64,000 nt of DNA, taken from assembly GCA_973895155.1 (NCBI GenBank), contig OZ316896.1, forward strand, positions 124,001 to 188,000, given 5' to 3'. Below the pieces are notes generated by a model. It was not told the origin of the DNA, made no database searches, and saw only the letters and a list, made by a program, of their open reading frames with translations. Below are positions 22,481 through 64,000 of this stretch, one piece after another; position 1 is the stretch's first letter; each line of letters begins with the position of its first letter. A program made the translations under genes and the position numbers. Source of the DNA: Marsupella aquatica. Taxonomy: Eukaryota; Plantae; Marchantiophyta.

Positions 22481-23550
22481 CGCATTACATGACCTCAACT
22501 TTTGTATCTCTTACTGACAATGGCCATTTATCATGTAAACATCGTCAATAGTGTGTGGTTTTCTCAGAATACTCTAAACCCTAAACCTTGTTCCTTTTCT
22601 TTCAACAGTGTTGTGTGGGTTTATCAGAATACTTGGCCTTTACAGATGAACAGTCACCTTTTAAGATTAAGAGTGTACCAAGGGTTAGCGCGAGGTGCAA
22701 TACAATGCCCACAACAAGAAAGATTAGGCAATTCAACCATACTACCCTGCTGTGCCTGGTTGTTCCCGAAAAAACCTTCACCCGGCCCCTACTGGAAGGT
22801 TGCCCATTCAACCTCCTTACAGTAGCAGACTAAACAGAAATCATCACAACTAATCCAAAAACGCACACTACTGGACAGTACAGTGAGTACTTCTGATTAT
22901 TATACAATAAGAGAGTGTGTGGTCAGTGATGATGTGGTTTTTCAATAGCTTCTCATCCCACTTTATAAAAACAACAGTGAGGACAGTCTGACCAGCACCG
23001 CATTTCTTCATTAATGAACATGTCTGTTTACGGTAGTCCACAAAACAAGACATTCCACTCGTAAACAAAATAAGACATTCCACTTAGAGCAGCATTGCTC
23101 TCCTACTGTTCAACTGAGTAATCACTTATCAAAGTGGCTTAAACTGTGGCTGTGTTATAGAATACCCCCATCCCATGTACCCCCCTTCACCTTCAATACT
23201 GTAATTTTGATACGTAAAGACTTTCGTGGATTTTCTCTTTGTATATTTGAGTGCATTAATTCTCCATAATGCACCCCTTTTTTTGAGGAGGGGATTATAC
23301 AAAACACCTACCTGATACTAACACAATATCTATGAATAGAACCTAATATAACTAAAGAAGGTATATTTTTGGCCAATTCCATAGCAACCACTTCTTGGAT
23401 GACCCTTTAATTTGAATTTTCTATTTCAGCGATTCACTTTTTCTTGTTTGTTACCAAAAAGTCACTCAAGTTTTTACGTACATTAATGTCCTAGTTACGG
23501 GCATTATATCCCACAATGCCCTCTAACCAGTGAGGACATTATCCTATTAA

Positions 23551-24395
23551 TACCCTTCAGAGCACATGGGCATTAATTTGCATTACCCCAGCACATGGTG
23601 GCTGTGCGTTTTGGAATACCCCATCCCTCGTACCCCCCAACCTTCAAAATACTGTAATTTGATACATACATACCCTTCGGAGCACATTGGCACTTGCATT
23701 ACCCCAACACATGGTGGCTGTGCGTTTTGGAATACCCCATCCCTCGTACCCCCCAACCTTCAAAATACTGTAATTTGATAATACATACCCTTCGGAGCAC
23801 ATTGGCACTTGCATTACCCCAGCACATGCTGGCTGTGCATTTTGGAATACCCCATCCCTCGTACCCCCCAACCTTCAAAATATTATAATTTGATAATACA
23901 TACCCTTCGGAGCACATTGGCACTTGCATTACCCCAACACATGGTGGCTGTGCGTTTTGGAATACCCCATCCCTCATACCCCCAACCTTCAATAGTGTAA
24001 TTTGATACATACATACCCTTCGGTGCACATTGACATTTGCATTACCCCAGCACATGGTGGCTGTGCATTTTGGAATACCCCATCCCTCGTACCCCCCAAC
24101 CTTCAAAATATTATAATTTGATAATACATACCCTTTGGAGCACATTGGCACTTGCATTACCCCAGCACATGCTGGCTGTGCATTTTGGAATACCCCATCC
24201 CTCGTAACCCCAACCTTCAATAGTGTAATTTGATACATACATACCCTTTGGTGCACATTGACATTTGCATTACCCCAGCACATGGTGGCTGTGCATTTTA
24301 GAATACCCCATCCCTTGTACCCCCCAACCTTCAAAATACTGTAATTTAATACATACATACCCTTCGGAGCACATTGGCATTTGCATTACCCCAGC
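23551..24395 (+). repeat. Tandem satellite, ~113-120-bp unit, ~7.3 copies
   Basis: TACCCTTCGGAGCACATTGGCACTTGCATTACCCCAGCACATGGTGGCTGTGCRTTTTGGAATACCCCATCCCTCGTACCCCCCAACCTTCAAAATACTGTAATTTGATA repeated, starting at about 23551, 23671, 23786, 23901, 24014, 24129, 24243 and 24358. Confidence 0.95.
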
Positions 24396-30400: not shown

Positions 30401-30639
30401 TATGTGTACGAGTCTATAGCAATGCCTCGCTGTAGACGATCTTTCAACGTAGCAATTGTTTGACCCGTGGTACCAGGATGCATATGCCTACTGCCAATCC
30501 CTTTTGCAGTGACTTGAGACCGATCTCTCGTGCAATAACTAACATTAGATGGAAATCTGCAGTGAGTAACCAAATTCTCCCTTGCCTTAACCCACGCTGG
30601 GGTTGACCATCCATCCACCCAAAGTGCTAGTCTTGTCAA
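27472..30639 (-). CDS. PLS-class PPR protein with E1/E2/DYW domains (organellar C-to-U RNA editing factor)
   Basis: Open frame of 1055 codons (first in-frame ATG at 30483; upstream exons possible). About 23 PPR motifs, PG box (EPGRSWIE), HSEKLA, CSDCH and terminal CSCGDYW*. Confidence 0.95.
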   Translation of the reverse strand: MTRLALWVDGWSTPAWVKARENLVTHCRFPSNVSYCTRDRSQVTAKGIGSRHMHPGTTGQTIATLKDRLQRGIAIDSYTYVKVLQMCLQQKDLSGAKQIHDCIIESGIHENPYVAITLLNVYIKCGGLSDARRVFDQIQKKSVITWTSMIAGYARSDHVESALEIFNLMRQEGVKPNEITYLSILNACSSPLALNWGKEIHQGIRHAGFESDVRVGSALVLMYAKCGCITEARKVFEKLTNRNVITWSVIIRAYAERGDGVEAYRLFLQMRRDGFEPNAITYTSILNASACDGGLAWVKDVHCHARKAGLESDLRVGSALVHMYAESGRIGDARLVFDRMEKRDVVTWTVMIGGLAQHGSGHEAYRLFLQMRREGFEPNAVTYVSILNAPASEGSLEWVREVHGHASKVGLESDLRVGTALVHMYAKSGSIDDARLVFDGMEKRDVITWNVMIGGLAQHGCGHEAYRLFLQMRLEGFEPDAFTYASILNASASAGALEWVKEVHGHVRNAGLESDLRVGIALVHMYAKIGSIDDARLVFDRMERRDVITWTVMIGGLAQHGSGHEAYQMFLEMRRQGFEPNEITYVTILNASASAGALEWVKEVHGHARKAGLESDLRVGNALVHMYAKIGSIDDARLVFDRMEKRDVITWTVMIGGLAQHVSGHEAYRMFLEMRRQGFEPDEITYVTILNASGSAGALEWVKEVHGHASKAGLESDLRVGSALVHMYAESGSISDARLVFNRMEKRDVVTWNIMIGGLAQHGYGQEALGLFRQMNADHVKPTETSFTAVLSACSHGGLVDDGRRIFSAMTQDYGIERTVFHYNLMVDILGRAGHVEEAKQLISEMPIEPNDVTWTALLGACRTYGNVELGELAANELFKLEPGKASTYVLLSNIYAAAGKWEKVSSVRTMMQERGVRKEPGRSWIEVHNKIHEFVVGDTSHPEAEAIYTELNKLSEKLKAEGYIPDTQLVLHDINEEDKELALCSHSEKLAIAYGLMHLPWGEPIRVSKNLRVCSDCHSATKYISKVTGREIIARDANRFHHFKDGMCSCGDYW

Positions 30640-34200: not shown

Positions 34201-34784
34201 AGGTTGTGATCTCGCTTACAGGGCGTACTTTTCTAATGTGGAGTTCACTACAGTGTGGGACTTTTTTTCTACTTCCCATATTTCACCCTAAACCCTAACC
34301 CTAAACCCTAAACTCCTCTTTACTAAAACAAAACCCTAAACATAATTGGCTACCTTTATCCAAGTCTCCTCCAACAAACCCTCCTTGATCTTCTCGACTC
34401 CACTATGCTCTTCCCCCTTCTCTTAACCCCAATTTCCTCTTTTAGTAAAGCCACCCAAATGATGACAAGTCTTAGTACGGCCCATACTTCATTGTCGGCA
34501 ATGGTCTCCGAGAATGGTATAATTGTGGGCCACCATTTCCTCTTTGAGTTGAGGCACCAAGTATGTACATAAGGCAAAGAATATGAAAAAAAGGAGAAAT
34601 GAAAAGAGGATTGTTTCGACACAAAAATTATCAAAACGTGGGAATGAGAGAGTATCATTCACCACTTTATTTATACTAAATCCAAGAGGGCATTGATTAC
34701 ACCCAAACGCTTAGATAAAAGCCAAGTGGCACACATCTCGGCACACATCCAACGTAGGAATGTGTGCTAGTACTATTGCAATCA

Positions 34785-35275
34785 AAATAAATAATGCATG
34801 CAAGTAAAATAACTAATTCATGCATCTAAAACAATTTGTGTATGCATGCATCTTATGACTTGCATATTTGCTCATCTTGCATGCGCATAAAATAACTAAT
34901 GTATGCACCTAAAACAATTTATGCATGCATGCATATTTGCTGATCTTGCATCATGCGCATAAAATAACTAATCCATGCAAATAAAACAATTTGCATGCAT
35001 CTAAAACAATTTGTGCATGCATCTTGTGGTCGGGCTTGTGGCTTGCACATTTGCTCACCTTGCATGCACATAAAATAACTAATACATGTAAATAAAATAA
35101 TTTGCATATATTTGAAACAAATTATGCATGCACCTTATGGATTGCATATTTTCTCATCTTGCATGCACATAAAATGACTATTGCATGCAAATAAAATAAT
35201 TTGCACATGCATCCAAACAATTTGTGCATGCATCTTGAGGTTTGCATAGTTGCCTACCTTGCATGCACATAAGTA
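34785..35275 (+). repeat. Degenerate CATGCA-rich tandem repeat
   Basis: About five copies of TTGCATATTTGCTCATCTTGCATGCRCATAAAATAACTAAT...AAAACAATTTG. Confidence 0.8.
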
Positions 35276-37942: not shown

Positions 37943-40900
37943 TGTGGTGCGTCCCATGGCTCCCCAAACCCAAGAAAACCCCCTTGCTCAAGCCAATTCC
38001 CGCAGGTTTCATCCTCGGCAAGGCCGTTTCCGTGGCTTAGCGGCATGGGACGCTGCTAATTCTCCTTCTACTACTATTAACATTTTACACACATATACGG
38101 GACAGATCCTTCATCGGGTCATGAGATACTTAGCCGACCTATTCTAGGCCTTCCCTTGTATTCCTCTCCTGGTCTTCCATTAGGTATCTTTGGATTCCGC
38201 CGCCGGAATGATCCCCAATTGGCTTGGTTAAGCCGCTAAGACCTCTCTCAGCTCGACACATCCAACTCTCACTCCCTTGCTACTTCCCTTCATTGATGTG
38301 GGCACTCTTCATACAAGTTAATGCGACACACAAATAGCAAAATGACTCCTTCTGACTGAGTTATACCATGCACTTGCCATACAAATAGTACATCTCATAC
38401 ACAAGCTCTGCAAACTAAGCCGTGAGGCCAACTCTATTCAGTTTTTAGGCATGAGGAAACATGAATATACACAAGGGTCACTGTATAACTAACCGAGAGC
38501 TTCTCTTACTACTTGATCCCAGCCCTGCTGGTGCAACTAAAAACTTGCTAAAGAAGAGGCCCTGGACTCCCCGCTGCCCAGGTATTTATCCTGGCAGCGG
38601 ATCTGTCCAGAACTTCACTGCGTAAGCTTAATCTATCCTACCTGTAATCTACCTAACTGTACAGCGAGGCAGGAGCACAAGTGTTGCTTCTACCAGTGGA
38701 TCCGCCATCCCACTAATCTAAGTGTCAGGGCTGTCTCCTTGTCTTGATCCTAATCCTAAACTTGGAGATCTGAGCCTGCCCTGCCCACTCACGCCTCCTA
38801 CCTCCACGTCCGCCCTTCCTTAAAGGAACGACGCCCTTGCACCATCACAACACCGGTGGCGGATCCTCAATGGACGCCTCCAACGCTTCCCCCGCAGCCA
38901 CTGCCGTCGGTCCGTCCTCTGACAGATTGCCTACCCCGGACCGAGTCAACTCTTCATCGGCTTGACTGGGTCCACCCTTGGCTTCGGCCTCAGCATCGGT
39001 CACGGCCTTCGATACGGCTTCGGCCTCTTCGTCATGTTCTAGTGGAGGATCCGGTACCTCGGCTTCATCAATAGCTGTCCCGGCCACAGCCTTGCCATCC
39101 CCACCTTCTTCAACAGGTGGATCTACTGCCGTGACCATGCCGGAGGTTGGTGCCGGGTTGACCTCCTGGGTCACAACGGCTTGGTAAGCCGTATAACTCC
39201 CAGACCCAGAAGGTTTATGCTTCTTCTTCTTCCCTATTTCGGTAGTTGGTCCCTTCCCCTTGCTACCTACCTCCGGCACCGGGGCGTGTGTCTCGGCTTG
39301 TCTTTCGGCCAGTACCCCTCCTGGTAACGGAGTTCCCACAATTGGAGTTGGACCAGATGAAGCTAAGCACTTAAATATTGCGGCCTGTTTCTTCAGCCGC
39401 TCTGTTTGGTTATCGGCCCGCCGCTGTAAGTTCTCCATCTTCCTGGTGGTTTCCTCCATCTCCTCCTGGGCTTCCTCTAGGTCCTTCCGTCCCTCTTGCA
39501 GCTCCTTTCTGGCTTCCTCCAATTCCAATTTTAAGGTAGCCCTCTCCTCCCGGGTTGCTCTTCGCTCCTTGTCGAGCTTTGCTACGACCTTAGACTCCAT
39601 CTTATTCATCTTGGCATAAGTCTGGTCGAGCTGGTCGTCCTTCTCACGCAGGTCGGCCTTGAAGCTGGCCGTCAGGGACGCAAGCTCCTATTGCAGCGCA
39701 ATAATCCCTTGATAGGATTTTCCTAACTCGGCCTCCTTCTGCTCAAGGGCTCCGCGGATATCCTCGAGCTCTCCTTTCAACGCCCTCTCCTTTCTTTGAG
39801 TCTCCGCCATGGCCCGGTTGTTGGCGGTTATGTGGGCCTCCTCTGCGTCCCTCAGCTCCTGCTTCCACTTTTCCTTTACCTTGACCGCACCGGCCAACTC
39901 TCCTTGAGTCCGAGTCAGTTTATCTTTGATAATTTGATTGCCAGATTGAGCAGCATCCAATTGTCCTTGCATGATGTTTAGCTCATGCCGCTTAATCCGC
40001 AACTCATCTTGGGCTTTCTTGGCCGCCTGCAAGTCTTCCACCTCGGCTTCCGTCTCCCTAAGCCGCCGAATGACCTCGTCCTTCTTGCTTCTCTCCAAAG
40101 CCACCGCTTCTTCTAATCGGTGCTTTTCCAACATCTCCCTCTGGAAAAAAGGTCCCTGCTCCAACTCCTCCCCAAAGATGCTGAGCGCCAGGTCCCCACA
40201 CATCTCCCCGTACTCCATGGCTCTATCTTTAGCATAGGTGGAGTAAGTAGAAGTCATCGGCATCAACCACCTCGGCCTCTGCTCCCAAGCCGCCTTGCGG
40301 ATTTCTTCTACGGTGGCAAGAGGGTTGCTTCTTTTTTTGGCAAGCCGCCTGATGTCCTCCGGCCAATCTCCTCCTGGTAAATCTTTCTCCCTAGCCAGGG
40401 CTGCTTTCTCTTCCTCCCTAAGTCGCTCCTGAAAATCTTGTGCCGTCTGCTTTATGCCGTCAAAGCTCGGGGGAGCAACCTCTGGTGGGGGAGACTCGGG
40501 GCTACTCTGCTGGGTGGGGTCCCCTTGAACTACTCTTGGAAGTGTGGGGATAAACCGGCCACAGGTCCTTACTCCTGGAACATGATGATCCGACCCATAG
40601 CCGGAGTTATCATTGTTGTAGTCCTCCACCGCCTCCTCCACTGCTTGGACTCCCGGCTTCCCCCTCTGTTCCCCTGGTCCTGCCGTGAAAATGGCCTCAC
40701 AGATCACGGGCTCTTGTTCCTCCTCTGGTTTCCAGGTTGTCCTCTCCCTCTGCTTTCCGCGGGAAGGAGCCTTAGGCTGCTCTGCCTCCGATTCGGGGCT
40801 TGAGGCTCCCACATACATTTGAACTCCCGGCTTGTGTTCCGGCCTCCTTCTCTCGTTGGCTCCGGTAAAGGGGTTTTCCCTCCTGAGTTGGCTTAAGCCG

Positions 40901-42620
40901 GCCTCTGGGGCAGTGTCCTGTACCGGTGCCGTTGCCGTTGCCGTTGCCAGTGCCGTTCTCTCCTTCTCCAGCAATTTCAGCAGATTCTGCATGCCTGATT
41001 GCTGCATCGGCAAGTCTTCTTTCCTTGGCCAAAACACCTGCTCGATCGTAGGACTGGCAGGCTGGTTGGGCTCTTCTGTTGCCGGCCTCTACTCCGGAAC
41101 CTCCTCCGGTGCCCTTGCCGATAGGGGAAGTACTGGGGCAAAGATTTGACTTCTGGCATACCGGCACAACAGCGGCATGTGATAGCCAAGTCGGGACACG
41201 CTTCCCACGCCGATCACCTGCTGTTCCTCCTTCAAGATCTTCTTCAGTTGTTTGAGGAGGTACCCGTTGTAATCCCGGCTTGGGTCTGGCCTTTCTGCCA
41301 GGTAGACCTGAGCCTTGCCGATCTCTGCCCTTGGCAAGTTACAATGCATGGTCACCCGCAAGAAATCGATCATCTCTTCGATGTTCGGGTTGGTGCAAGT
41401 GTTCCGGAAGAAGCCATTCTTCGTTGATGGTCCTAGGAACGACCGGAACTCCTTGTCAGGTAAGGTCTTCCTGGTATCAACCTTGGTCTTATTACCCATC
41501 GGCAAGCCAAACACCTCGGCAATCACCCGGGGAGTGAGATAGAAATCCTTCCCATACACCCTCGTGGAATTGGTCTCGGGTTCCCATGATCCCACGAATT
41601 CTAATAAATCTGAGTCCTACACCTCCGGCTTCAGCCATGGTAATCTTACGAAGGCTTCCAAGCCGGATCCGGCCATGAAGCCCTGGTACTTCTTGGTCTA
41701 CATGGCCGTAAAGCATGCATCCTCCTCCCGTGCAAAATGTAATTGTACTTCCTCTGGTAGGGTCGCCGCCCAGCCTTTCCAGGTGTCATCCTTTGTTGGA
41801 ATGGCATTGATGGGATCGACCTCCTCCTCTTTGGCTTCTCCTTGCCTCCTATTCTGCTGCTCTGCTGGCTTCCTTGGTGCCACCGACCTCATTTTTTTTG
41901 CCAGGGTGGCCTCTTCGTTGTTGTTTCCTTTCCTCTTCATCTCGGCTACCGTGGATGTTTCTCCTAGCACAATTGCCTTTGTCCACCCCTCTGTGCTACC
42001 CTTCAACTCCCAGTACACGTCGTTGCAGCGGTTGATGGCTTCCCGAATGCCGACGATTCTGTCTTTGCAAAACAGAAGGTCATCGAGCTGATTGGCAGTA
42101 GGAGTCCACAAGAACTCGGCCTTGATGAGTTCTCCTCCTAAGAAGGCAAACTTCTGTAGCTCCCACAGTCAAGCAAGCTCCTGCCGTTCTCGAGCTGCTC
42201 TCTCTGATTCTTCGTCCTCATAAGTCCTAATGTACTCAGTTGCCCGTTCAAACAGGCATCCCCAAAAATGTGCCGCTTGATTGATGTTGCTCATACCCTC
42301 CTTGACTCGATCGTTGGTATCTGCTCCCGCCCAGAGTGCTTGCCTAAGCAGCTGACAGTAGTTGGCCTTCTGTAGTCGTCTGCCCAGTTTGTGCTTGCAA
42401 TTGAGCCACCATTCCTCGCGAGCGGTCCTTACCCCTCTCCTCCTCTGGTCTTTCCTCCCGTTGGTTACCCCTAGCCACCGATGCTTAGCGCGCCCTAACC
42501 CTAATCGTGTTCTCTCCCCCGGTGTCCTTACCTCCGGCCTCGGCCCGGGTTCCATAGTCACCCTTAATTGTTTATATTTTCCTTGTTTTTGTTACTATAC
42601 TAATGTGTTTATAGGGTACA
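37943..42620 (-). repeat. 3' LTR of copy B, 4,678 bp (TGTACCCTAT...GCACCACA)
   Basis: Starts with TG immediately after the PPT and ends in CA at the same end found next to both PBSs. The distal 1.9 kb is duplicated in the 5' LTR. Confidence 0.75.
38845..42555 (-). pseudogene. LTR-encoded accessory ORF (~1,236 aa): plant-transposon/PMD-like domain + long coiled coil + basic NLS-like motif + acidic tail; five in-frame stops, no frameshift
   Basis: ORFs 42169..42561, 41698..42111, 41089..41595, 39688..41037 and 38845..39609 are all in the same frame. Stops at 42169, 41698, 41617, 41089 and 39688 are all TGA/TAG. Motif GLEAFVRLPW...LLEFVGSW...VYGKDFYLTPRVIAEVFGLP. Confidence 0.85.
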
Positions 42621-42638
42621 CCTCCGTTTTCCCCACTT
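42621..42638 (-). promoter_or_regulatory. Polypurine tract
   Basis: AAGTGGGGAAAACGGAGG, 21 nt after the integrase stop and directly followed by TGTACC. Confidence 0.75.
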
Positions 42639-45600
42639 AACTGGCCTAGTGATTCCTGGCTAGGCATCACATAGCTCCCCACTTAATTGTGAAGCGTCCT
42701 CGCAAACAACTTCATCTTCGTCCATATAGTATTTCTTGAGGCGGTCGTAATGGATGCGAACTGGGTACACCTCTCCAGTAATGTTGGCCAATTGCACATA
42801 GCCATTAGAGAACTTCATTGATACCCTGAAAGGTCCTAACCAGCGAGTGTAAAGTTTCCCTGGAAACCTACTATACCTACTGTCATAAAGTAATACAAGA
42901 TCTCCTGTGTGAATACTAAGTAGTTTCAACCTTTTATCATATTGCTGCTTCATGGTATTCTGTCTATATTCTACTCTCTCGGCTGAAATCATTCTTGCCT
43001 CCTCTAAAGCTTCTAACCTATATTCTCGCTCCTTTAGGCTTTCCTCCTCTGAGGTTCTCTCCTCAATTGTAACTTGAAATGTAGGAATCTCAAGTTGCAT
43101 GGGTACCAGGGCTTCCTGTCCAAAGGTTAAGAAAAAAGGTGTATGACCGGTAGTGGATTTATAGGCTAAATTGTAAGCAAAAATAGCAGCAAACAATTTA
43201 TCATTCCAATCAAGTTTGTTCTGAGCTCCGGTTTTGTTCAATATCTTTCCTATAATTCTATTTGCTCGTTCTGTCAACCCATTTGCCTTTGGGTGGTAGG
43301 GAGTAGTAGGTCTATGTCTAACTAAATACTGCTCATTTAAACGACTAATTATATCATTCAGAAAATGGGTTCCTCTATCACTAACTAATTCTAGGGGTGC
43401 GCCATACCTGGTGAAGATCTGCTCATACATGAATTGAGCCGTAGTAATTGCATCATCCTTCGTTGTCGGCCTGGCCTCTACCCACTTAGTTGCATAATCC
43501 GTGGCCAGGATTATGTACTTGTTTTTTTGAGGATGGGTCAATGGTTTCAGAGGTCCCAAGTAGTCAATACCCCATTTCTCAAATGGTGCCAGAGGTAGAA
43601 TAGGGTGCAGTGGATGTCTTGTGGACGCCCTTGGTCCTCCCGCTCGCTGACAAGGGTCGCATTATTTGATAAACTGATAGACATCCTTGTGCAAGGTGGG
43701 CCACCAATAACCGGCATTTAATATCTTTTTAGATGTGGTTGCTGGAGAAAAATGTCCTTCGGCTTCCTCCCCATGCATAGCCCGTAAGACTCGTTTTACC
43801 TCTCCTTTTTCCAAACACCTTTGAATCGTGCCGCTGATTCCATACCTGTGTAGGATGCCCTTAATGCACTGATACTGTCTGACCTTCCGTAGAAAGACTG
43901 CAACTTGCTCTCTGTTTAGCCCTGGCTGTAATCTGGATGTGCTGAGAAATTGTAAAATCTCAGGGTACCATGTATCAGCTATTTCCACAACGAATAGCTC
44001 CTCGTCGAGAAATTGATCATTGATGCAATTCGTGGTAGGTTCACCTGTGATCCTTGAAAAGAAGTCGGCATTGGCGTGTAGCTTTCCTGGCTTGATTTTT
44101 AGCTCATAGTCAAACTCCTGTAATAGCAAAATCCATCTTGCTACCCTGCCTGTAAGGTCCGGCTTATTTACTAGGTACTTCAAACTTTCATGATCGGTAT
44201 GAAAGATTACTTTGTACCCCAGTAAATAATGCATAAATTTTTTACAGGAATAAATGACTCCTAATGCTTCTCTTTCTGTGGTGGAGTAATTGTGTTTGGC
44301 ATCGGCAAGTTGGCGGCTTGCAAAGTATATGGGATGGTCCCTTCCTTTCTCATCCAACTAACTTAGTACTGAGCCGATACAGAAGCCTGAGACATCTACA
44401 AAGACATGAAAATCCTTGTTCCAGTCTGGTGCTATCATGACTGGGGCCTCTACTAACATTTGCTTCAATTCTACTACTGCTGTTACTCGTTCTGGTGTGG
44501 GTTCAAAGTCTGCACCTGCTTTGAGCATGTTGGTTAATGGTAAAGCTAGTTTGGCAAAGTCCTTGATGAACCGGCGATAATAGCCAATGCACCCCAAGAA
44601 GGATCTCACATCCTTTATGTTCTTAGGTTGCATGATATCTAGCCATACTGCTAGCTTACCCTTATCAATCTCAATGCCCTTCTTTGATACCTTGTGACCT
44701 AGTAGCACACCCTCTGTTACTCCAAAGAAATATTTATCGGGGTGTAACTTGAGACCTACCTCTCTGCATCTCATGAAGGTTTTCCTGAGGTATTTAGCAT
44801 GTTTTGATGCCTTCCCAAACACTGCAAAGTCATCAATGAAGATTTCCATGAATTTTCTCAAGTAGTCGTGGAAAATGTTCACCATTAATCGTTGGAACAT
44901 TGCTGGTGTGTTACATAGTCCAAACGGCATACGATTGAAGACATAGATCCCCATTCCGTGATGAAGGCCGTCTTGATTTGGTCCTCCTGCCTAATCATGA
45001 TTTGGTTATAACCAGAGTATCCATCCATGAATGAGTATAGTTCATGACTGGCTACCATGTCTAGTACCATATCAGTAAAGGGTAAAGGAAAATGGTCTTT
45101 TAATGTAGCCTCATTCAACTTCCTGTAATCCTGACAAACCCGGATCTTTGGTTTACCATCGGGTCCAGCTTTCTTGGGAACTATCACGATTGCAATTACC
45201 CAGTCTGAGTGTAGGACTGGAGTGATGAATCCGGCTTCTACTAGCTTGTCGATTTCAGTTTTTACCATCAAAGAATACTTAGGGTTCATCCGTTGAATCG
45301 GTTGTCGAAATGATTTGGCCCCTAACATGAGATCGATTCGGTGTTCTCCTAGTTTTGGGTCTACTCCCTTCAGATCTTGGTGACTCCATGCAAACACATC
45401 CTGAAATTCAATTAGTAATTCACTGATCTCCTTCTTGAGCTCAGGTGTTAGGTCTCTCCCTAAGTTCAGTTCCCTTCCTTCTCCTAAGTTGAGCTTCCGG
45501 TATTGCCGTGCTTGGATCATATTAATCTGCTTCTTCAAATTCGGGTCCAGCTCGGCTTCCAGCCTTTCCAGTCTCATACCTCCATAGACTGGAATCTTGG

Positions 45601-51257: not shown

Positions 51258-53155
51258 TGTGGTGCGTCCCATGGCTCCCCAAACCCAAGAAAACCCCCTT
51301 GCTCAAGCCGATTCCCGTAGGTTTTGTCCTCGGCGAGGCCGTTTCTGCGGCTTAGCGGCATGGGACGCTGCTAATTCTCCTTCTACTACTATTAACATTT
51401 TACACACATATACTAGACAGATCCTTCATTGGGTCATGAGATACTTAGCCGGCCTATTCTAGGCCTTCCCTTGTATTCCTCTCCTGGTCTTCCATTAGGT
51501 ATGTTTGGATTCCGCCACCGGAATGATCCCCAATTGGCTTGGTTAAGCCACTAAGACCTCTCTCAGCTCGACACATCCAACTCTCACTCCCTTGCTACTT
51601 CCCTTCATTGATGTGGGCACTCTTCACACAAGTTAATGTGACACACAAATAGCAAAATGACTCCTTTTGACTGAGTTATACCATGCACTTGCCATACAAA
51701 CAGTATATCTCATACACAAGCTCTGCGAACTAAGCCGTGAGGCCAACTCTATTCAGTTCGTAGGCATGAGGAAACATGAATATACACAAGGGTCACTGTA
51801 TAACTAACCGAGAGCTTCTCTTACTACTTGATCCCAGCCCTGCTGGTGCAACTAAAAACTTGCTAAAGAAGAGGCCCTGGACTCCCCGCTGCCCAGGTAT
51901 TTATCCTGGCAGCGGATCTGTCCAGAACTTCGCTGCGTAAGCTTAATCTATCCTACCTGTAATCTACCTAACTGTACAGCGAGGCAGGAGCACAAGTGTT
52001 GCTCCTACTAGTGGATCCGCCATCCCACTAATCTAAGTGTCAGGGTCGTCTCCTTGTCTTGATCCTAATCCTAAACTTGGAGATCTGAGCCCGCCCTGCC
52101 CACTCACGCCTCCTACCTCCACGTCCGCCCTTCCTTAAAGGAACGACGCCCTTGCACCGTCACGACACCGGTGGCGGATCCTCAATGGACACCCCTAACG
52201 CTTCCCCCGCAGCCACTGCCGTCGGTCCATCCTCTGACAGATTGCCTACCCTGGACCGAGTCAACTCTTCATCGGCTTGACTGGGTCCACCCTCGGCTTC
52301 GGCCTCAGCATCGGTCACGGCCTTCGATACGGCTTCGGCCTCTCCGTCATGTTCTAGTGGAGGATCCGGTACCTCGGCTTCATCAATAGCTATCCCGGCC
52401 TCGGCCTTGCCATCCCCACCTTCTTCAACAGGTGGATCTACTACCATGACCATGCCGAAGGTTGGTGTCGGGTTGACCTCCTGGGTCACAACGGCTTGGT
52501 AAGCCGTATAACTCCCAGACCCAAAAGGTTTCCGCTTCTTCTTCTTCCCTGTTTCGGTAGTTGGTCCCTTCCCCTTGCTACCTACCTCCGACATCGGGGC
52601 GTGTGTCTCGGCTTGTCTTTTGGCTAGTACCCCTCCTGGTAACGGAGTTCCCACAATTGGAGTTGGACCAGATGAAGCTAAGCACTTAAATACTGCGGCC
52701 TGTTTCTTCAGCCACTCCGTTTGGTTGTCGGCCCGCCACTGTAAGTTCTCCATCTTCCTGGTGGTTTCCTCCATCTCCTCCTGGGCTTTCTCCAGGTCCT
52801 TCTGTCCCTCCTGCAGCTCCTTTTTGGCTTCCTCCAATTCCAATTTTAAGGTAGCCCTCTCCTCCTGGGTTGCTCTTCGCTCCTTGTCGAGCTCCGCTAT
52901 GACCTCAGACTCCATCTTATTCATCTTGGCATAAGTCTGGTCGAGCTGGTCGTCCTTCTCACGCAGGTTGGCCTTGAAGCTGGCCGTCAAGGACGCAAGC
53001 TCCTGCTACAACGCAATAACCCCTTGATAGGATTTTCCTAACTCGACCTCCTTCTGCTCAAGGGCTCCGCAGATATCCTCGAGCTCTCCTTTCAACGCCC
53101 TCTCCTTTCTTTGAGTCTCCGCCATGGCCCGGTTGTTGGCGGTTATGTGGGCCTA
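51258..53155 (-). repeat. Distal 1.9 kb of the 5' LTR of copy B, including the ORF C-terminus (52160-53155)
   Basis: Colinear with 37943-39840; ORF 52160..52990 matches ORF 38845..39609. Confidence 0.88.
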
Positions 53156-54563
53156 TGTGGTGCGTCCCATGGCTCCCCAAACCCAAGAAACCCCCCCGCA
53201 CAAGCCGATTCCCGCAGGTTTCATGCTTGGCGAGGCCGTTTCCGCGGCTTAGCGGCATGGGACGCTGCTAACCTCCTTTCTACTACTACTATTAACATTT
53301 TACACACATATACTAGACAGATCCTTCATCGGGTCAGGAGATACGCAGTCGGCCTAATCTAGGCCTTCTCTTGTCTTTCCCTCCTATTGGTTAGGTATAT
53401 TTGGATTCCGCCGCCGGAATGATCCCCAATTGGTTTGGTTAAGCCGCTAAGACCTCTCTCAGCTCGACACATCCAACTCTCACTCCCTTGCTTACTTCCC
53501 TTCTACTTGTTGATGTGGGCACTCTTCACACAAGTTAATGCGACACACAAATAGCAAAATGACTCCTTCTGACTGAGTTATACCATGCACTTGCAATACA
53601 AACAGTACATCTCATACACAAGCTCTGCGAACTAAGCCGTTAGGCCAACTCTATTCAGTTCTTAGGTATGAGGAAACATGAATATACAGAAGGGTCACTG
53701 TATAACTAACCGAGAGCTTCTCTTACTACTTGATCCCAGCCCTGCTGGTGCAACTAAAAACTTGCTAAAGAAGAGGCCCTGAACTCCCCGCAGCTCAGGT
53801 ACTTATCCTGGTTGTGAATCTGCCTGATTCCTTGCAGCGTAAGCCTAATCTACCTACTGTAATCTACCTAACTGTAATCTACCTATGTACAGCGAGGCAG
53901 GAGCACAAGTGTCGTCCTCACCCATGGATCCAAAATCCCACTAATCTAAGTGTCAGGGCCGTCTCCTGGTCCTGATCCTAAGTCTAAACTTGGAGATCAG
54001 CGCCCGCCCTGCCCACTCACACCTCCTACCTCCACGTCCACCCTCCCTAAAAGGGACGGCGCCCTTACACCGTCACGACACCGGTGGCTGGTCCTCAATG
54101 GACGCCCCCAACACTTCCTCCGTAGCCATTGCCGTTGGTCCGTCCTCTGACCTGCCCCTGACCGAGTCAACTCTTCATCGGCCTGACTGGGTCCACCCTC
54201 GGCTTCGGCCTCAGCATCGGTTACGGCCTCTGATACGGCTACGGCCTCTAATACGGCTACGGCCTCCCCGACATGTTCTAGTGGAGGATCCGGTACCTCG
54301 GTAGCATTACTGGTTCTCCCGGCCTCGGCCTTGCCATCTCCACTCCCTAGGACTGGTGGATCCACCGCCGTGCCGATGCCGGAGATTGGTGCCGGGTTTA
54401 TCTTCTCGATCACAACGGCTTGAGAAGCCGTATAACTCCCAGACCTAGAAGGTTTCCACTTCTTCTTCTTCCCTATTTTGACAGCCGGTTCCCTCCCCTT
54501 GCCACTTACCTTCGGCACCGGGGTGAGTGTTTCGGCTTGTCCTTCGGCCAATACTACCCCTGG
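53156..54563 (-). mobile_element. LTR end of a third family member (copy C), nested in the 5' LTR of copy B
   Basis: A new TGTGGTGCGTCCCATGG terminus at 53156; ORF tail 53997..54551; similarity stops at ...CCTGG(T) 54563/54564. Confidence 0.85.
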
Positions 54564-55035
54564 TGTAGTATCACACTAGGGACATAAATAAACATTTAAG
54601 ATCCAAAACTCGGTATTCGTTCCCATGGAAGAACATGTAAGGAATGATTTTCTATGATTTAGCACTTATGAATGAATAAGGTAACAAAAACACAAAGGTT
54701 GAGCCTTTTACTATGGTTGCTCAGCAAGGCATAGTTTTAAATGTCTGCTTGACATTAAAAATAAAATTAACAAATGGAAACAATTAATAAAACACAATGA
54801 AAACCTTGAGGTATGGTGAGGGAGTTAGGAAACAACCAAGGTGACTCCTCAACATAACTTCATTTGATATGATTTAGGTGGTATATCCGCAAGAACATTT
54901 TTGGAAAGGATTACGATACTAGGATGATTACTAAAATGCCGTCAACATGTCTCAACTTTTCCTTCCAAGGTACTGAGTGGAGACTAGTAATCAATCACTT
55001 CTGTATCCAATCGGTACTTTGTGTCACAAATAAGA

Positions 55036-55387
55036 GGGGTATGGCATGCGTGACAGTAAACAGGAAACAGGTTTACTGGTACCAATAAAAATTTTCCTGT
55101 TACCAGCAAAAATTTATTGTTACCAGGAAAAATAATAATGTCAAAATATTTTCTAAAACGTCAAATTTTCCAAAAAAAATTAAATTATAACATTTTTTGG
55201 CTAGCTTTGGGCGCTAGCATTACCAGCGCCGGGCGCTAGCAAAAAAAAAAATTACGAAAAAAAAAAAAAACTTTTTTTTCCAAAAAAAAATTTCAAAAAA
55301 AATTTCAAAAAAATTACCACTCATTTCCTGTTACCAGTTTCTGTTTCCTGTTACTGTTTGCTGTTTCCTGTCGTTTGTAAATACCCC
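55036..55387. mobile_element. ~350-bp Mutator-like MITE
   Basis: GGGGTAT...ATACCCC ends with ACAGGAAACAG/TTCCTGT subterminal repeats. Flanking direct repeat AATAAGA(G) (7-9 bp depending on boundary). Confidence 0.7.
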
Positions 55388-56372
55388 AATAAGAGACACC
55401 ATCATAATCAAATTTGAAGCCATAAGTAATTGGTAAGTAACAATCTTTGCATCCCGTGCACAAGCAATGTCACGCCAAAAACTATGCATCAAGAACTAAG
55501 GAATATGTGAAACATCACCAACAAGGAATCTATTTCCACATACTCAAAAGATTTAATAATCACAATAATTTTACTTCAAGGGTCCAAACTTCTCATTCAT
55601 TTAGACTTGAAGGGGGAAGAATTCCTTTGTATTAAGTACTCATATGCAATGGAGTGCTTGATACAAATGGAGGTACCAAAGTTGCAATCTTGCAACTGAG
55701 CGCTCATGAAATTTCTTCACACTAAAAGTGACAGAAATTCAACTACATATAGGCTAGCAGAAACTAAAGGGGAAAAGAGATAATGAAAGGACATGCCCTT
55801 TCATATCTTAAGGGTCATAAACTAAAGTAAAAAGTATGAAAATATGCTACAGGAGTACTCAAGGTTCACTAGAATGTTGCTGGAATGAAAAACTAATCAA
55901 AAATGATCTCTAGTGTAAACTGGAGTAAAAGTGTTTTTGCACTTTTGTGGTAAAACTAATAAATAGTGAGTTTATCAAAATTTTAATTTCTAACATAAAG
56001 GTCAAAATGGGGTGAAACTTTCCTAGGTGAAAGATTTATATACATGCTACATGCTGGCAAAATTTCAGACTTTTCTAAGGTGTCTAAGTGCCTTAATAAA
56101 ATTGATGAAAATTTCTGTCGGATATAAAATATACTATTCCGGAAAATTTTTTAAGTGTCGGAAGCGCCGTTGCGCCTTTGCGCACTCACGCTACTGCAAA
56201 ACTAAAAATGCTATAACTTCTAAACGACATGTTGGTTTAAGCCGATACTTTCAGGGTATGGTCTGCTACATAAGGGCTATCTCATGAAAAAGTATGAGAC
56301 TTTTCTAACTACTTTAACTATTTAACAAAAATGATGGAGATTGACTAATCCTGACTCAAAGGATGGAGTAGG

Positions 56373-58942
56373 TCAATCCTCCTGAAGTAGTGCTGACTGG
56401 TCCGGTTGTTGAACACTCCTGAATATCTCAGTTCGAATCACCTCTCGAAGGAAATCCATAACTTGCATATCATGTCGAGCAAATGGAAGAGACCTGATTT
56501 GTCGTTCAGCATTTAGAATGGGGAGTAGTCTTCTGTGAAACATAGTATTCACCTTGCTAGCTTGCATATAGATGCCGACCAAATCATAACTACAACAAGT
56601 AGTATGGTAGTTGCGTGGAAACTTGTTGATGAAGGTGTCAGAGTCCTTGGCAAGTGATAGAAGTGGGGTGACACGAGGTAACAGTTCCCGCCACTTCAAG
56701 GTGTAATCAGCCAATCGCTGGGAAGTAATGTTGTTCCAAATTCTCTGACTCTCAGCAACTGGTGAGATAAATTGTTGAACAATAAAAGGTTTCTCTGGTA
56801 GGACACCATGTTCGACCTGATATCGTTTGTTGGTTTGTCTCAAAAAGTTGATGATGAATTCCAAGACATAGGCAGGTAAGTTCCCGAAGTATGCCAGGGC
56901 CAGATCTCCATTCTCCAATACAATGTGTCCAACCAGGATTATGACAGCAAGAATAGGGCAAAAATATTTAGCCTCTGTCCAGATCTTATCCATCTCTGCT
57001 ATCTCTAGGCGGGTGACATCCTTCAAATGAAGCTTCAGGATATAGAGACATTCAACTCTCTTCTTATGATAGTATTGCCAAAACTCAAAAATGGGAGGAG
57101 TTCTAAGGTCTTAAACTCTAACAAACTCAGCAAATTGTGTAATATTCTCCTGAGGGGTCTTAGGGTCAATATGCAGTGTAGGGATGAAATTGACCTGGTG
57201 GAAGGGTGTCAGGATAAGAAGTGGCAAGATGTTCACCTGTAGGGGTGATCTCAAGTTCTGGAAAACTAGGATAGAGCTGGTCTGGTTGATTCGAAGGACT
57301 GTAAGGAGAGGTGGGTGAATGGCTGGAAGAAGGGGAAGAATAGTAAATGGGAGAGCCAGAGGCTGAGGTATGATAACGGACGACATAATAGACTTGCTTC
57401 GGGTTGCAACCAAAAATCTGTGTAAACCTGTGGACTAAATCCTCACAATATTCTCGATGATGATCTCGAGTAAGTAAAGCTGATGTCTTATGCAGAAGAT
57501 CATCCAAGACATCAATTAAGTGTCTCTCATCACACTCCAGCATGTCAGTCATTTTATTAACAAGAGTAGAATAGTGTTTAGCAGAGTGACCTGGGGAAGC
57601 AGATAGTGTCTGTTGGAGCTCTAACCTGGGTGATGCATCATTTTCCTCCATTGGTTCAGCTTCAACAATATTTGTAACCCTAATATTGGAGGTGGGTTGA
57701 AATAGCTCCATCACTTCAGGATAGAACTGAGTCGGTCCTTGGGTTGGAGAGTATGGAGAGTCGGGACTACTAGGTTCAGGCAGAGTTACAGAGGCTGCTC
57801 TTAACCTCTCAACAGAGTCAACTATCTCCTCAGGTTCACAGATCAATAAGTTGCTTAACTTATCAATAATTTGTTGATTAGATTCTACTCTCAGTTCATC
57901 AGCCGTTGGTTTGCTGAACATGAAGGGTCTCTTACGGGATCTCATAGAAGGGGTCAAGCTGTCTACAGATAAATTCTGAGTTGGGACTGTGGGTGATCGA
58001 AGAGTATTAGGGATAGATATGTCAACTACAGGTACAGAAGGTGGGGACGTTCCTACTGGTTCTGGCGCGGATGTATACTCATCAAGATTGGAATTGAGGG
58101 GGGTGTAAAGTCTTCTGTCCTGATTGAGATCTTCGAAAGGGGATCAGGAATTGGTGAAGTGGTTCTCTATGGGTAAGAGGGGTAACCTCTGAACAGATAG
58201 GTGGGGGAACCTCCGGTTGGACTTCATCAGCATCTTCTCCTTCAGTATCCTCGTTTCCTGATTCACTAAGATCAAATTCATCAAGCAGTCTGATCCGCTC
58301 CTCTTGTTCGCCTGGAAGTAAGCAATTCCCATGAAAGTACAATTGGCAAAGATAAGAAGGGAGAGTAGTGAACTCGTCCATTTTCACCTTCTTTACTTGA
58401 GATAAAATAACCTGTCTTAGCAACAAGGCCCAATTTATCTGAGCAACACCCTTCCAACTTGCCACAATAGTATTGGCAAGTGACACAGGTATCATATGTG
58501 GCCGGATGGGATGGAGAATTGGAATCAAAAACTCTAAAATGATTTTGAGAGTATAATCGGTGCACTGATCCATTTTCCATCCATGGCGAACGTTTCGAGT
58601 TCCAGAAAAATAAGGCCTCGCAATCTCCCCTTGTTGTGAGTGTAAGCTGTCGCCTTTGGCGGGACAGTCGAAAGCATCAGCAACAAATTGCAGAGTCCAG
58701 AATTCTGGATTCGCCCGAGCAGTTCCCACCATACCTACTTCGATTCGTGCCCCATCACTGAAATCCTTCAAAAAACTCAATGAAGTTGCAGACCAAGGCA
58801 GAGTGAGTAATTTACTCAGGTGCATGACCGCCAGTGCTTCCTTCAAAACGTGCAAGCTTCTTTTCATCGTAGGGTATGTCACAGGGACGGCCTTAGGTAG
58901 AGGAACTCCTCTCGCGGTCATCTCTCCCCCTTCGTCTGCCAT
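56373..58942 (-). pseudogene. Accessory protein paralog 1 (~855 codons; 2 frameshifts, 1 stop)
   Basis: ORFs 58082..59032 (likely ATG at 58942), 57166..57957, the tail of 57111..57413, and 56373..57026. Colinear similarity with paralog 2. Confidence 0.8.
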
Positions 58943-59115
58943 AGTAACAAGAAACAAGGCGTTGTCACCAACTATCGATCCAAAGAGAGCAATGCCAAGT
59001 GATCTGTAAGTAGTGGGTATTTCCAAAATCATGAAGAAACTGAAAATTTTTAAATTTTTTATGGGGTTTAACCTCTAATTGTTGATAACAGAACGGAGAT
59101 AGCATTCTGTCTATA

Positions 59116-59287
59116 AGTTACGGTTCCCAAGTTTAAAGTAAGTTTACGAATAAACTCCAGTTACGAGTTACGAGTTACGGGGTTGCGACAGTATACTAGT
59201 TACGAGTATACTAGTTACGACTTACTAGTTAGGGCTTTACGAGTTGTGCCTTACGAGTTGGCGACCGATGATCGCGACGTCTTACGG
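59116..59287 (+). promoter_or_regulatory. Array of ten TTACG (mostly AGTTACG) motifs in the divergent intergenic spacer
   Basis: TTACG at about 59118, 59144, 59161, 59168, 59175, 59200, 59215, 59237, 59251 and 59282, all on one strand. The regulatory role is inferred. Confidence 0.55.
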
Positions 59288-59444
59288 CTACTTCCAACGG
59301 GACTTAGCAACGGGATGGCGAACGCGAATTGAAGAAAAGGCAAATTAGACTTCGGGCGCTCACTCCTAACTTAATTCCTGCCACCTCTGTTGATTCTACT
59401 AGCTTCCCCACTCCTTAGCGCACTCAACATAATGGATGAGAGCT

Positions 59445-61703
59445 ATGGCAAACCTCGGCATTGATGAACAGTACCGAGTTGACACTCTGGCAATTCCTAA
59501 GAGCATAGTCGCCCAAATTCCACCAGCGCCCGATAGCTATGCAAATTTACGGACTTCCTTATAGCAGCTAGGTTTGCAGCATCTACTTGCCGTCCCTTGG
59601 GAAGTAGAGCTCGACACATATTTGCAGGATTTTGTAAAGGGGTCAGTGCTTGCTCCTGAATTTTGACGGACTATTCGAGCTCGACCCAGCTTATGGACTG
59701 TGGAACAAATTGCTTATGCCTTCCGCTGCCCTTCAGAAGGAGAAGGATTGTATTCAAAGAAGAAAGATTTATCTACACCTTACTTCTCTGGGACTCGCAA
59801 TCTCACCAATGGCTGGAATTTAACACAGTGTATTTATCCAAATTTGAGAGTGCTTCTGGAATTTCTAGTACCCATTTTACACCCGAAGAAACCAACCATC
59901 TGTCCAGTGGCTTTGGTGAATACAATTGTAGCCGCACATAGTGGATCTGTCCCGGTGAATTGGGCCCTGCTAATTTTCAATGTGATGAAGGATCAGGTGA
60001 GGACCATGAAGGCAGGTAGACCCACTCATCTGCAGATTTATTTGTCTCAACTCTATCATGCTTATGATTGTTTATATCCAGAGGAGAAAACGGAAAGAGG
60101 GCTGCTCCTGATTGAGTTAGGCATTGAAGAAGACCTAAGTATGGAAGAACCAGTGGATGCTGTTCCCCTGGATTCTCATGATCAGAATGTGGATGCTGAG
60201 ATGGAATTAGATAGGACACCTGCTCATAACTTAGAGCTGGTTCGACACCCTCTGCATAACGTGGTGTATTCACCAAGGGTTAATATGAGAGATCAACCTG
60301 GAGCTGGAGAAGACAGAGATTCTCCTGAGCAATCAGCCGACGTTGCTGAACTGGCTCTTGCAACTGTCAACCTAAGGACCAACTCCTCCACTCCTTTGAA
60401 GGCAGAGTCGAATCAGCAGCTTATTGATAAGTTGACATCTCTCCTCAGTTGCAGTGATGATGAACTATATGATGCTGTTAATAATTTGAGAATGGAGGCT
60501 GTTAGTTTGGGATCACCATTTCATGATCAGCTAAGCCCTGTCAGAATAACCTCTTCCCCAAGAGAACCAGCACCAATGGAGTTTGTGCTCTGTACTCCTG
60601 TCACTGTACAGCCCCCTCCCCTAGAAACAAGTGAGCCTATTCCAGTAACAGATAGTATCAGCTGTGTGGCCATTGTGGATGACTTGTTAGAACTACTACA
60701 GTGTGAACCTCGACAGATAGCATCTGTGGTCCGCAACTTGATCCAACAATGTCCAACTGCTAGTCCTACTCCTAGCCCAGGTTCGCAACCTTACAGCCCT
60801 GATTCCAACTACAAACCCACAGAAGGACCCACCTACAATCGGTCACAATATGAGCACCCTTTTGACAGAAAAGATCTACCTGAAGACTCTGATCCACCCT
60901 CAGATGGTGAAACTTATAGATCTTATGATAATTCTCTTGAGTCATCCCCAAGGCAGGGATTTGAAGATGTTGATACTGCCTTAAGATCCAATCCAAACTT
61001 AGTAGCAGTTGTCACTTCATCTACTCAAACACCTCGGAATGCTACTATCGAAAGCAGGTACCCTAGACGTCCTGAGTCAGAAGTGCACAGGTATGCCACC
61101 ACTTGCAAAATAATGCAGGCCAACAGACCACCGGTTGGAGAGTTCTAGAGATACTACTATCTAAAGAAGACTGAGGCAAGCTACATCTTCGATCTTAGGT
61201 GTCTTGGTACTTCTAGAGTGGAAATGGCACAATTTGATGAGTTCTGGATTGACTCAATATACTTTCGGCCTATTCTTGCTATGATGCTACTCCAAGGTGA
61301 TGTAGAGGTAGAGGATTCAGACTTAGTTCTGGCATACTTTGGAAACTTTGTAGCCTATGCCTTGGATTTTGTGGTTTCCTTCCTGATGCAGAGCAAGAAG
61401 TCTACTACTCTACAACACGATTACATACCACAAGAACCTAAGGTTACCCTTGTTTCAACCAGTACATTGGCTGAGAAACAGAGGATCTGGAATAATGTCA
61501 CTTCTCAGACTCTAGCTGAATTCAACCGATACTTCAGAGATGTCAGATGGAGACTTCGACCCTTCTATTCCAGGATGATGAGTAGTGATGAGTTCCTGTT
61601 TCATTATTCCCAAGTGTATGCTGCTACCTGCAACAACTATGATGTGATTGGGATGTACAGAGAAGCTCTTCGTATAGATTCATGTTATTTTATGAAGCAC
61701 TAG
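59445..61703 (+). pseudogene. Accessory protein paralog 2 (>=750 codons in one frame, with in-frame stops)
   Basis: ATG at 59445 (MANLGIDEQY...LGLQHLLAVPW...RARPSLWTVEQIAYAF) is in frame with ORFs 59700..61148 and 61218..61703. Stops near 59562, 59664 and 61146. Confidence 0.8.
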
Positions 61704-64000
61704 AAGAAACCCACCCTTTCTGAGACCACAAAGAACGTGACTTGTCCGAGACCTTCATGAAACAGCGACTCCAAAGTTGTTGGTGTCATGTTAGTCACAC
61801 CTTCTTGACTGAGTTTTGGTGAAGTTTTGAGGAGTCATGTTTACAACTTTTAGGGAAGTTGTAACTATAACTGAGTTAAGGCAATTAGGTTGAAGTCATA
61901 CAAGCGACTCTACATTAGAGTACAACTTATGAGAGCACAACATTTGAGCCCTTCAACCTTAAAGTATGGGATCTAACCCAATACATATGATTTTGGATAC
62001 ACCATATGTCATCCCACATAGATTTAATTATAGTCAGGTCATACCATTTGAAACCATTACTGAGTATTCCATCATTATTCCTGCCCCCATTTAGACACCA
62101 TGAAGCGCGCCCCAGCCCCATTCAACTGCAAAAAGGATTTGTCAAAGCTTGCTAACCTAACTTAATGCTTTTTGTAGTCAATCTCTAATTTTTCTATCGC
62201 CGTCTTCTGGTCGTGCCAAAAAGGTGCTTAATTATCACCCAATTTCAGCCTCACATATGTAGCTAGGTTGGGTTTACTTATTGCCATGCCCCATAAACCT
62301 TCATGTTTCCCATGCCCCCTTCATATATGACAACCAATGCATGGTTCATGTTCAATATAAGTCCAACTTAAATGTCCAACTTAAATATATATGATCAGCT
62401 CTTCACTACCCCAACCCTAAAAAAGTGTACTTATCATAATGGTAATGTGGGGTCATATATACCTGACTATTTGGCCACATTTTCACCAAAGGGGGTGGTT
62501 CAAAGTTGTGACTAACCACTCACCCCACATATAACTATTGCGTAAGTCCTTTGGTTTCAAAGGAAAAAACTAATTAGGCAAATCATAGACTTTTGTGTCT
62601 CTTTTGTGCTTTCAATGTCTCCACTTCAATGTGCGTGAGTGTGCCTTTGGACACAAGTTTAGGGTGCGCGGGTTTCGTTTAACACGGCAGCAGAGTGCAA
62701 AGTTGAGTTGAATGTGCGCGGGAACTCGGTTTAGGGAAAAACTAGCTTGTCCATTCTGCTGTCGGCCGGGGACATTCATCGTGCTTGAAGGTTTTGTGAA
62801 GGGTTTTGTGCGAGGAGCTTTACGGACTTCACTCTCGCTTGAGAGATGGTGATGGTAGGCAGGTGCAACAGCAGTGCTTGATCAAGGCTAGACTTTATTG
62901 CGTAAGTCCCTGCTCGTCGTCTGGATATGTCATTGTTGTCGGGGTCTTCATGCTCGTCTGATTTGTCTTTTGCTCTTTGTGGCCGAGAGTCGACTACCTC
63001 ACTCACTGACTTCTTGTCCAATGCATACCACAACCCTATTCCTCGTTCTCAGTCTACGAATTGTTTCCAAAACTATTCGGAGAAACTGAGTCAAAGTGTC
63101 GTTCGTTGAGTGTTGACAGTGTCGCTCTTTGGCAAGCAGGAAGGTGCTTTTTCCGGGTTTCCATCGTAAGGTTACGAGCTTCTGTTGTTGCAGCTGTGAC
63201 CGACAACTGAGGAGCTACAACCAAGAGCTTATTGATTTGCAGCACTGCCATGGACGAGGAGCTGTGGAGGGCCGGGGAGCTGCAAGAAAGTGGGGAGTGA
63301 TCTTGAAGGCCAACTATCTAGCGTGAGGTGGATCATCGTGGCTGCAACATTGACCGGGCCTTTTTTTGCGTTGGGCACTGTGAGTAAGGCAATCTACGGA
63401 GGCGCGAAAGAGTCACGAGGAGTCGAGTTCAGCTACGGCAGTATTCACTTCAATTGTCCCAATGTGGTTGGCGTGAGCTGCAGGTGAGCTTAGTTGTGTG
63501 CACATTTCATGTAAGTCAAGTGGTCGGTGTTTTAGGCATTGCGGAACTTGATTGACCACCCCATGGCTAAGGTTTAAGGTGCGGACTACAACAAATATGT
63601 GTTGTTGCTGAAAGTGTTGGTGGTGAGCGACAACTGGTATTGTTTCAGCTAAAGGGAGCACATTGGAGCTTGTGTATCCATGACCTGCGACCGATTGCGG
63701 CTGCCTGTTGTTACAATCGCCGAATCAATCACGCACCCAATCTTGCGGGCAGAAACAACTTTGCGGGAGTGTTGAAGGTTTAGGGTGAGCAACAGCGGAG
63801 AGCTCATTGCTTGGTGGCAGGGTTGAAGGTGGATGATCGGGCTGCAAGGCCAACCGGGGACTTGTTTTGCATTGAGCGATTGCTGCGGATTGCTATGCAG
63901 CTTCAGTTAGGGCGGCTTGGTGCTACATCGGCACAGGTAAGGCTGCAATCCCCTATCGACGCGGACTCACCTCGTGACTGCAAGTATAGTTGTCTAGGTG

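Follow-up and report, generated by a model that had tools for sequence, protein, structure and literature searches.

We analyzed a 64,000-nucleotide stretch of Marsupella aquatica (GCA_973895155.1, contig OZ316896.1, positions 124,001 to 188,000; hereafter the window), and our data indicate that two related, divergently oriented genes at 56373..61703, which we call gene A and gene B, are very probably one copy, now decayed, of a mobile accessory cassette. On a more specific reading, which we regard as evenly balanced, the cassette is likely multi-copy and probably of the Ty3/Gypsy type, and its head-to-head genes are predicted to encode VANC-like DNA-binding proteins that would act on an array of the motif AGTTACG and keep their promoter unsilenced. 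A wider proposal is made tentatively: long terminal repeat (LTR) retrotransposons, likely well outside the flowering plants, may run VANC-type sequence-specific anti-silencing, with a large accessory protein family unseen by Pfam co-evolving with family-specific CpG arrays, and one lineage may have doubled the gene into an autoregulating head-to-head cassette and added a C-terminal domain of unrecognized fold.

Gene A (56373..58942, minus strand) consists of an N-terminal domain (N-domain, 58231..58942), a low-complexity linker with three short helical modules, and a C-terminal domain (C-domain, 56376..57197), both domains lying on the minus strand. Gene B (59445..61703, plus strand) has the same architecture with two helical modules, an N-domain (59490..60177, plus strand), and a truncated C-domain (61044..61698, plus strand); its 3' end is missing. 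An earlier note on this DNA had described two divergent open reading frames (ORFs). Their ATGs at 58942 (minus) and 59445 (plus) and all the motifs quoted there are present, but neither frame is open. Gene A is broken by frameshifts at ~58.1 kb and ~57.19 kb and by a stop at 57113-57111, and gene B is interrupted by stops at 59562, 59664, and 61146 and falls ~50 amino acids (aa) short of an intact relative, P0002. Intact genes at 56373..61703 are ruled out by these frameshifts and stops.

The architecture common to both genes, also claimed in the note, is borne out by tblastx, which pairs the N-domains (41% over 213 aa), the middle parts (53% over 38 aa), and the C-domains (36% over 209 aa) with a combined E value of 9e-115 and ~40% protein identity over both domains. 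The best match at the DNA level is just 66% over 134 nt. Identities at the three codon positions are 0.49/0.64/0.36 in the N-domain and 0.51/0.63/0.37 in the C-domain, and silent sites are saturated (dS of 3.5 in the N-domain and 2.2 in the C-domain; pS of 0.74 and 0.71), with a dN of 0.64 and a pN of 0.43 at amino-acid-changing sites. The short DNA match and the saturated dS rule out a recent inverted repeat, in line with the view that protein motifs were kept while the DNA diverged. A dN/dS check, as the note had proposed, gave about 0.2-0.3, a value that is only rough because the silent sites are saturated, yet far from 1. At the level of sequence, an old duplication kept by purifying selection is thus supported. 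The copy at 56373..61703 is dead, and therefore, selection worked on the family and not on that copy; the idea of a module kept under selection holds in this restricted sense.

A phmmer search of 1.84 billion representatives returned 292 hits at E ≤ 0.001 for the N-domain family. Among 150 of the 292 matches listed, P0002 (808 aa) alone covers both domains in one stretch. It is found intact on contigs of 3.4-3.9 kb, and its cluster has three full-length members that differ at 0, 2, and 5 positions. Gene B is 71% identical to P0002 overall (N-domain, 83%; linker, 58%; C-domain, 76%). Of 157 proteins gathered, many of them fragments, 139 have a match to just the N-domain and 12 to just the C-domain; in most relatives, a coiled coil takes the place of the C-domain. 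Thirteen of 165 proteins have the short helical module, and five of these belong to the seeds' own cluster. Word-based protein searches gave no match with the N-domain of gene A, only P0002 with the C-domain (among proteins of 444-1414 aa), and 8 unnamed N-domain proteins among proteins of 624-2000 aa. No Pfam family reached its cut-off in the domains of the pair or in their relatives, PDB sequence searches were empty, and VANC21 is not among the results of a profile search against PDB sequences. In the C-domain tree (13 rows), the four rows of the minus type (100/99) and the two rows of the plus type (100/99) are joined at 91/91. In the N-domain tree (89 rows, left from 160 by a coverage filter), A and B fall within one clade of 9 with a support of 1.0. 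Several Arg/Lys columns, at positions 76, 119, 133, and 147, are conserved over the 89 N-domains (R76, 96%; position 147, 92%).

The N-domain of gene A is predicted to have a VANC21-like fold. Its model, built from an alignment of 77 sequences, has a predicted local distance difference test score (pLDDT) of 94.8 and a predicted template modeling score (pTM) of 0.89, and VANC21 bound to DNA is its sole clear structural match. Among 48,161 chains compared by VIA-align, the VANC21-DNA entry 9LNK (Z of 7.1 and root-mean-square deviation [rmsd] of 4.1 over 191 of 214 residues) is the single chain at Z ≥ 5, and the runner-up reaches a Z of 4.4 over 59 residues. The sister entry 9LNJ, compared among Foldseek's top 174 chains, gave a Z of 7.3 over 192 residues; both matches come from one model and one aligner. 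The match carries weight because of its coverage, because of the gap to the next chain, and because VANC21 is itself an accessory protein of a plant transposon. VANC21 binds a short motif amassed as tandem arrays in the non-coding DNA of its own element and strips methylation there (PMC5735166). The C-domain of gene A, unrecognized in the note, stays so: its all-alpha model (pLDDT of 76.7) has no Pfam family, a best VIA-align Z of 4.2, no Atlas hit, and nothing from Foldseek at E ≤ 0.001, which does not prove a new fold.

Judged by its sequence context, the N-domain is an accessory domain of Ty3/Gypsy elements because it comes after pol in both relatives with a visible context. The first, L001, is the one locus obtained from 83 pattern matches in a metagenome locus scan; scans of viral contigs and prokaryote genomes gave no locus. 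In L001, reverse transcriptase, RNase H, and integrase are followed by a purine tract, ~490 bp, and, in the same orientation, the N-domain gene, an order which we take to be the layout of Athila. The second is a neighboring Ty3 element within the window, in which a remote N-domain homolog follows the integrase at 41664-41361 (independent E value of 9e-5; hhalign probability of 89.6 and E value of 1.9e-6). A long, stop-broken frame extends beyond the integrase of this neighbor (39690-42699, minus strand) and contains the N-domain homolog and a coiled-coil-like tail. The note's claim that a mobile element carries the pair gains from this affiliation and from the likely multi-copy state discussed below.

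The spacer between the two genes (58943..59444, 502 bp) is likely a common promoter and contains the second link of our model, a motif array at 59116..59286 (plus strand) with putative binding sites. Here, AGTTACG occurs six times and TTACG ten times, all on one strand; none of 500 shuffles gave six copies of a 7-mer. Furthermore, the CpG observed/expected ratio is 1.21 in the spacer versus 0.40 and 0.26 within the genes. Only 2 of 127 window tiles have a ratio of at least 1.1, and the spacer tile alone also has a 7-mer at least six times. Arrays are present in the other two elements as well. L001 has AAACCGC five times after the purine tract and just upstream of the N-domain gene (tract and array at L001 2271-2759; 0 of 500 shuffles), with a CpG ratio of 1.09 versus 0.42 in pol, and the neighboring Ty3 element has CGGGTTA/TAACCCG nine times as a CpG-bearing array in non-coding DNA at 50.3-50.8 kb. 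Three elements thus have three different CpG-bearing arrays.

The stretch was found whole or in part in six public runs, five of which were compared with it and four of which underlie the counts by run given below; remarks on stops and variants rest on the 40 of 440 rows of letter differences listed. In run X1, contigs 97-99.6% identical to the window have depths of 190 for gene A, 180 for the spacer, 228 for gene B, and 115-320 for the right flank, and diverged pieces have depths of 12-31. The unit of both genes, spacer, and right flank is likely multi-copy because each of these parts is covered by near-identical deep contigs. The X1 depths fit a family with some ten or more young whole-unit copies, depth not being a copy count. 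The stops of gene B are private, i.e., not common to most other copies: another base is found at 59562 across all depth in all four runs, at 61147 in nearly all depth, and at 59664 in half to all of it. Loose contig ends at 61688-61698 in all four runs mark the point at which the window copy loses the end of gene B, and a deep X4 contig has a length difference near the first frameshift of gene A.

Both flanks are without a Pfam domain of note and without a transposase domain. The left flank (54565..56372) is non-coding, is more repeated than the genes, and is possibly a terminal repeat; it starts where the neighboring Ty3 family is cut. The right flank (61704..64000), also non-coding and free of Pfam domains in six frames, has a depth like that of gene A and runs past the end of the window. 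The left junction at 54564/54565, where the neighboring repeat family is interrupted, is the sole element boundary visible, so that the note's placement of the pair inside a nested element holds on the left, but the right end and any target site duplication (TSD) fall outside the window. A miniature inverted-repeat transposable element (MITE) is located inside the left flank at 55036-55387 with GGGGTAT/ATACCCC at its ends, repeats in sub-terminal position, and a target duplication of 7-8 bp, and a joint in run X1 skips approximately this stretch. The neighboring family also has 1.9-kb repeats with coding sequence (37943-39839, 51258-53154, and 53155-54564; 96% and 85%), whose occurrence side by side points to tandem units more than to plain LTRs.

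In our model, transcription would start in the spacer and run in both directions from the common promoter, and the N-domains of both proteins would bind the AGTTACG array between the genes. The bound proteins may then guard the promoter from methylation, as VANC21 does at its own arrays. The short helical modules might serve oligomerization, and it is imaginable that the C-domain recruits a host factor.

Several observations weigh against this model. The VANC21 matches (Z of 7.1-7.3, rmsd of 4.0-4.1, and 11-12% identity) lie below the tool's caution line of Z 8, and Foldseek with the N-domain found nothing at E ≤ 0.001 in the PDB and viral libraries. Neither DUF1985 (searched at E ≤ 5) nor PMD (PF10536) was found by Pfam in the 77 N-domain members, and PF10536 is also absent from 45 full proteins. 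The fold alone shows no function; direct binding to DNA is unproven for MAIN and MAIL1, which have it (10.1101/2024.09.27.615353). As for the array, a 7-mer occurs six or more times in 7 of the 127 window tiles, the tile with the neighbor's array was picked after viewing, retention of CpG fits any active promoter, and elements of this kind frequently have tandem arrays in their non-coding DNA (PMC6317226, PMC11963269). Within the window, the A/B element has no gag-pol, LTR pair, primer binding site, polypurine tract, or TSD, and no flank-to-flank repeat. Finally, A and B do not pair as direct sisters in the N-domain tree, no single contig bridges A and B, and the depths of gene B contigs in runs X3 and X4 (5183 and 1376) are 4-8 times those of gene A (670 and 300-311), depth again being no copy count. 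An obligate A/B pair is doubtful because of this difference in depth. In one organism, gene B appears to be more numerous than gene A.

An alternative that we consider rather unlikely is that the proteins serve Ty3 elements in some other accessory role, as nucleic-acid chaperones, as tethers for integration, or in the trafficking of particles, all of which are discussed for the extra ORFs of Athila and Retand, and that the array is a cluster of host transcription factor sites or a slippage repeat. The fold match below Z 8 leaves room for it, the function of extra ORFs is given as unknown in PMC7264820, and the look-alikes in the Atlas are Transposase_32 and ATHILA clusters (0.86-0.87; a lead only). 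However, the one match of known structure binds DNA sequence-specifically and aligns over nearly the whole N-domain, the three elements have three different CpG-bearing arrays, and hydropathy gives no clear sign of a transmembrane segment such as an Env-like extra ORF would have (the highest 19-residue value, 1.73, lies in the C-domain of P0002). It is improbable that two related single-gene elements were fused by recombination or insertion and then co-amplified, which would make the head-to-head layout historical. Each gene has closer relatives elsewhere (P0007, P0105, and P0135 versus P0002), the N-domains are not direct sisters, and, besides the excess of gene B in X3 and X4, the spacer array is variable there (59122-59222), with loose ends at 59070. 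Yet the X1 depth is about equal across both genes and the spacer, the C-domains join at 91/91, and the 502-bp spacer has no visible element end or TSD, in keeping with the juxtaposition check asked for by the note, which found no element end there among the rows listed; a fusion would also be compatible with an anti-silencing function. It is very improbable that the cassette belongs to a Mutator- or CACTA-like DNA transposon or consists of host genes domesticated as a pair within a segmental repeat, a reading for which VANC as a Mutator gene, the movement of PMD genes among hosts, Gypsy, and Mutator-like elements (PMC5418596), the lack of an LTR hallmark within the window, and the intact P0002 on short contigs could be cited, but against which stand the Ty3/Gypsy context of both informative relatives, flanks without a transposase domain, and private stops and deep near-identical copies that fit a decaying mobile family.

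The DNA of the window is rich in repeats and contains a decayed Ty3/Gypsy gag-pol at ~42.7-48.2 kb. Further features are an intact PPR-E-DYW gene of 1003 aa (27472-30483, minus strand) with six 303-nt repeats that are 60-91% alike, an ORF of 411 aa (17193-18428, minus strand) matching PF17667 (fungal-type protein kinase family) above the family cut-off, and tandem repeats with units of ~115 bp at 23550-24395 and ~100 bp at 34773-35272. The PPR-E-DYW gene and the gag-pol make a land plant the most likely host. No tRNA genes were found in the window.

Extra ORFs without an assigned function are common in such Ty3/Gypsy elements (PMC7264820, PMC6317226, PMC11963269, PMC11728184); what they do in plants is a long-open question (PMC7264820, PMC11963269), and whether they shape methylation is still asked (PMC12844716). 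Our model would give all three elements a candidate activity together with a candidate target, each protein being predicted to prefer the array of its own element. If it is true, anti-silencing reaches beyond the Mutator elements of eudicots, the case for retrotransposons as a source of the PMD/VANC fold is strengthened, and targeted epigenome work gains new pairs of protein and motif. The literature covered, which includes few subscription journals, yielded no description of paralogs paired head to head, of the N-domain family, or of arrays that differ by family next to the extra ORFs of LTR elements; the N-domain family may be among the entries of the extra-ORF tables of PMC6317226. Anti-silencing by transposon PMDs has already been speculated upon (PMC5418596, 10.1101/2024.09.27.615353). 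What is new here, and was not seen in the earlier note, is the combination of a predicted VANC21-like fold with a motif array, which offers a possible mechanism for A/B.

Among known systems, Athila ORF-1 (PF03078) and Transposase_32 (PF20167) resemble L001 in their position after pol and are close in the Atlas comparison, but just 1 of the 77 N-domains matches PF20167 (E value of 0.005), as does 1 of the 45 full proteins (15.7 bits versus a cut-off of 45). Retand elements often have several extra ORFs together with tandem arrays, and their TRP28 is a predicted DNA binder; unlike A/B, their extra ORFs are mostly antisense. The fold of PMD (PF10536) is reported to be similar to that of DUF1985 (PMC13547354, 10.1101/2024.09.27.615353), PMD-A (Gypsy/Ogre) is encoded by Gypsy elements, and the MAIN/MAIL1 paralogs are proposed to form heterodimers (PMC5418596). 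Since PMD-A is a Gypsy protein and VANC, MAIN, and PMD are reported to have a common fold, a Ty3 protein with a VANC fold is not categorically new. A/B differ from PMD in that none of the 77 members matches PF10536; the PMD survey covers angiosperms only, and no head-to-head pair was found in the literature covered. From VANC21 and the other VANC proteins (DUF1985) of the VANDAL Mutator-like elements, A/B differ in the lack of a sequence match, in their Ty3/Gypsy relatives, in being two divergent paralogs, in the additional C-domain, and in that their DNA binding and any demethylation are putative. With VANC they would have in common the predicted fold of the N-domain, the status of a transposon accessory protein, and a family-specific array of a short motif in the non-coding DNA of their own element, the trait described for VANC in PMC5735166.

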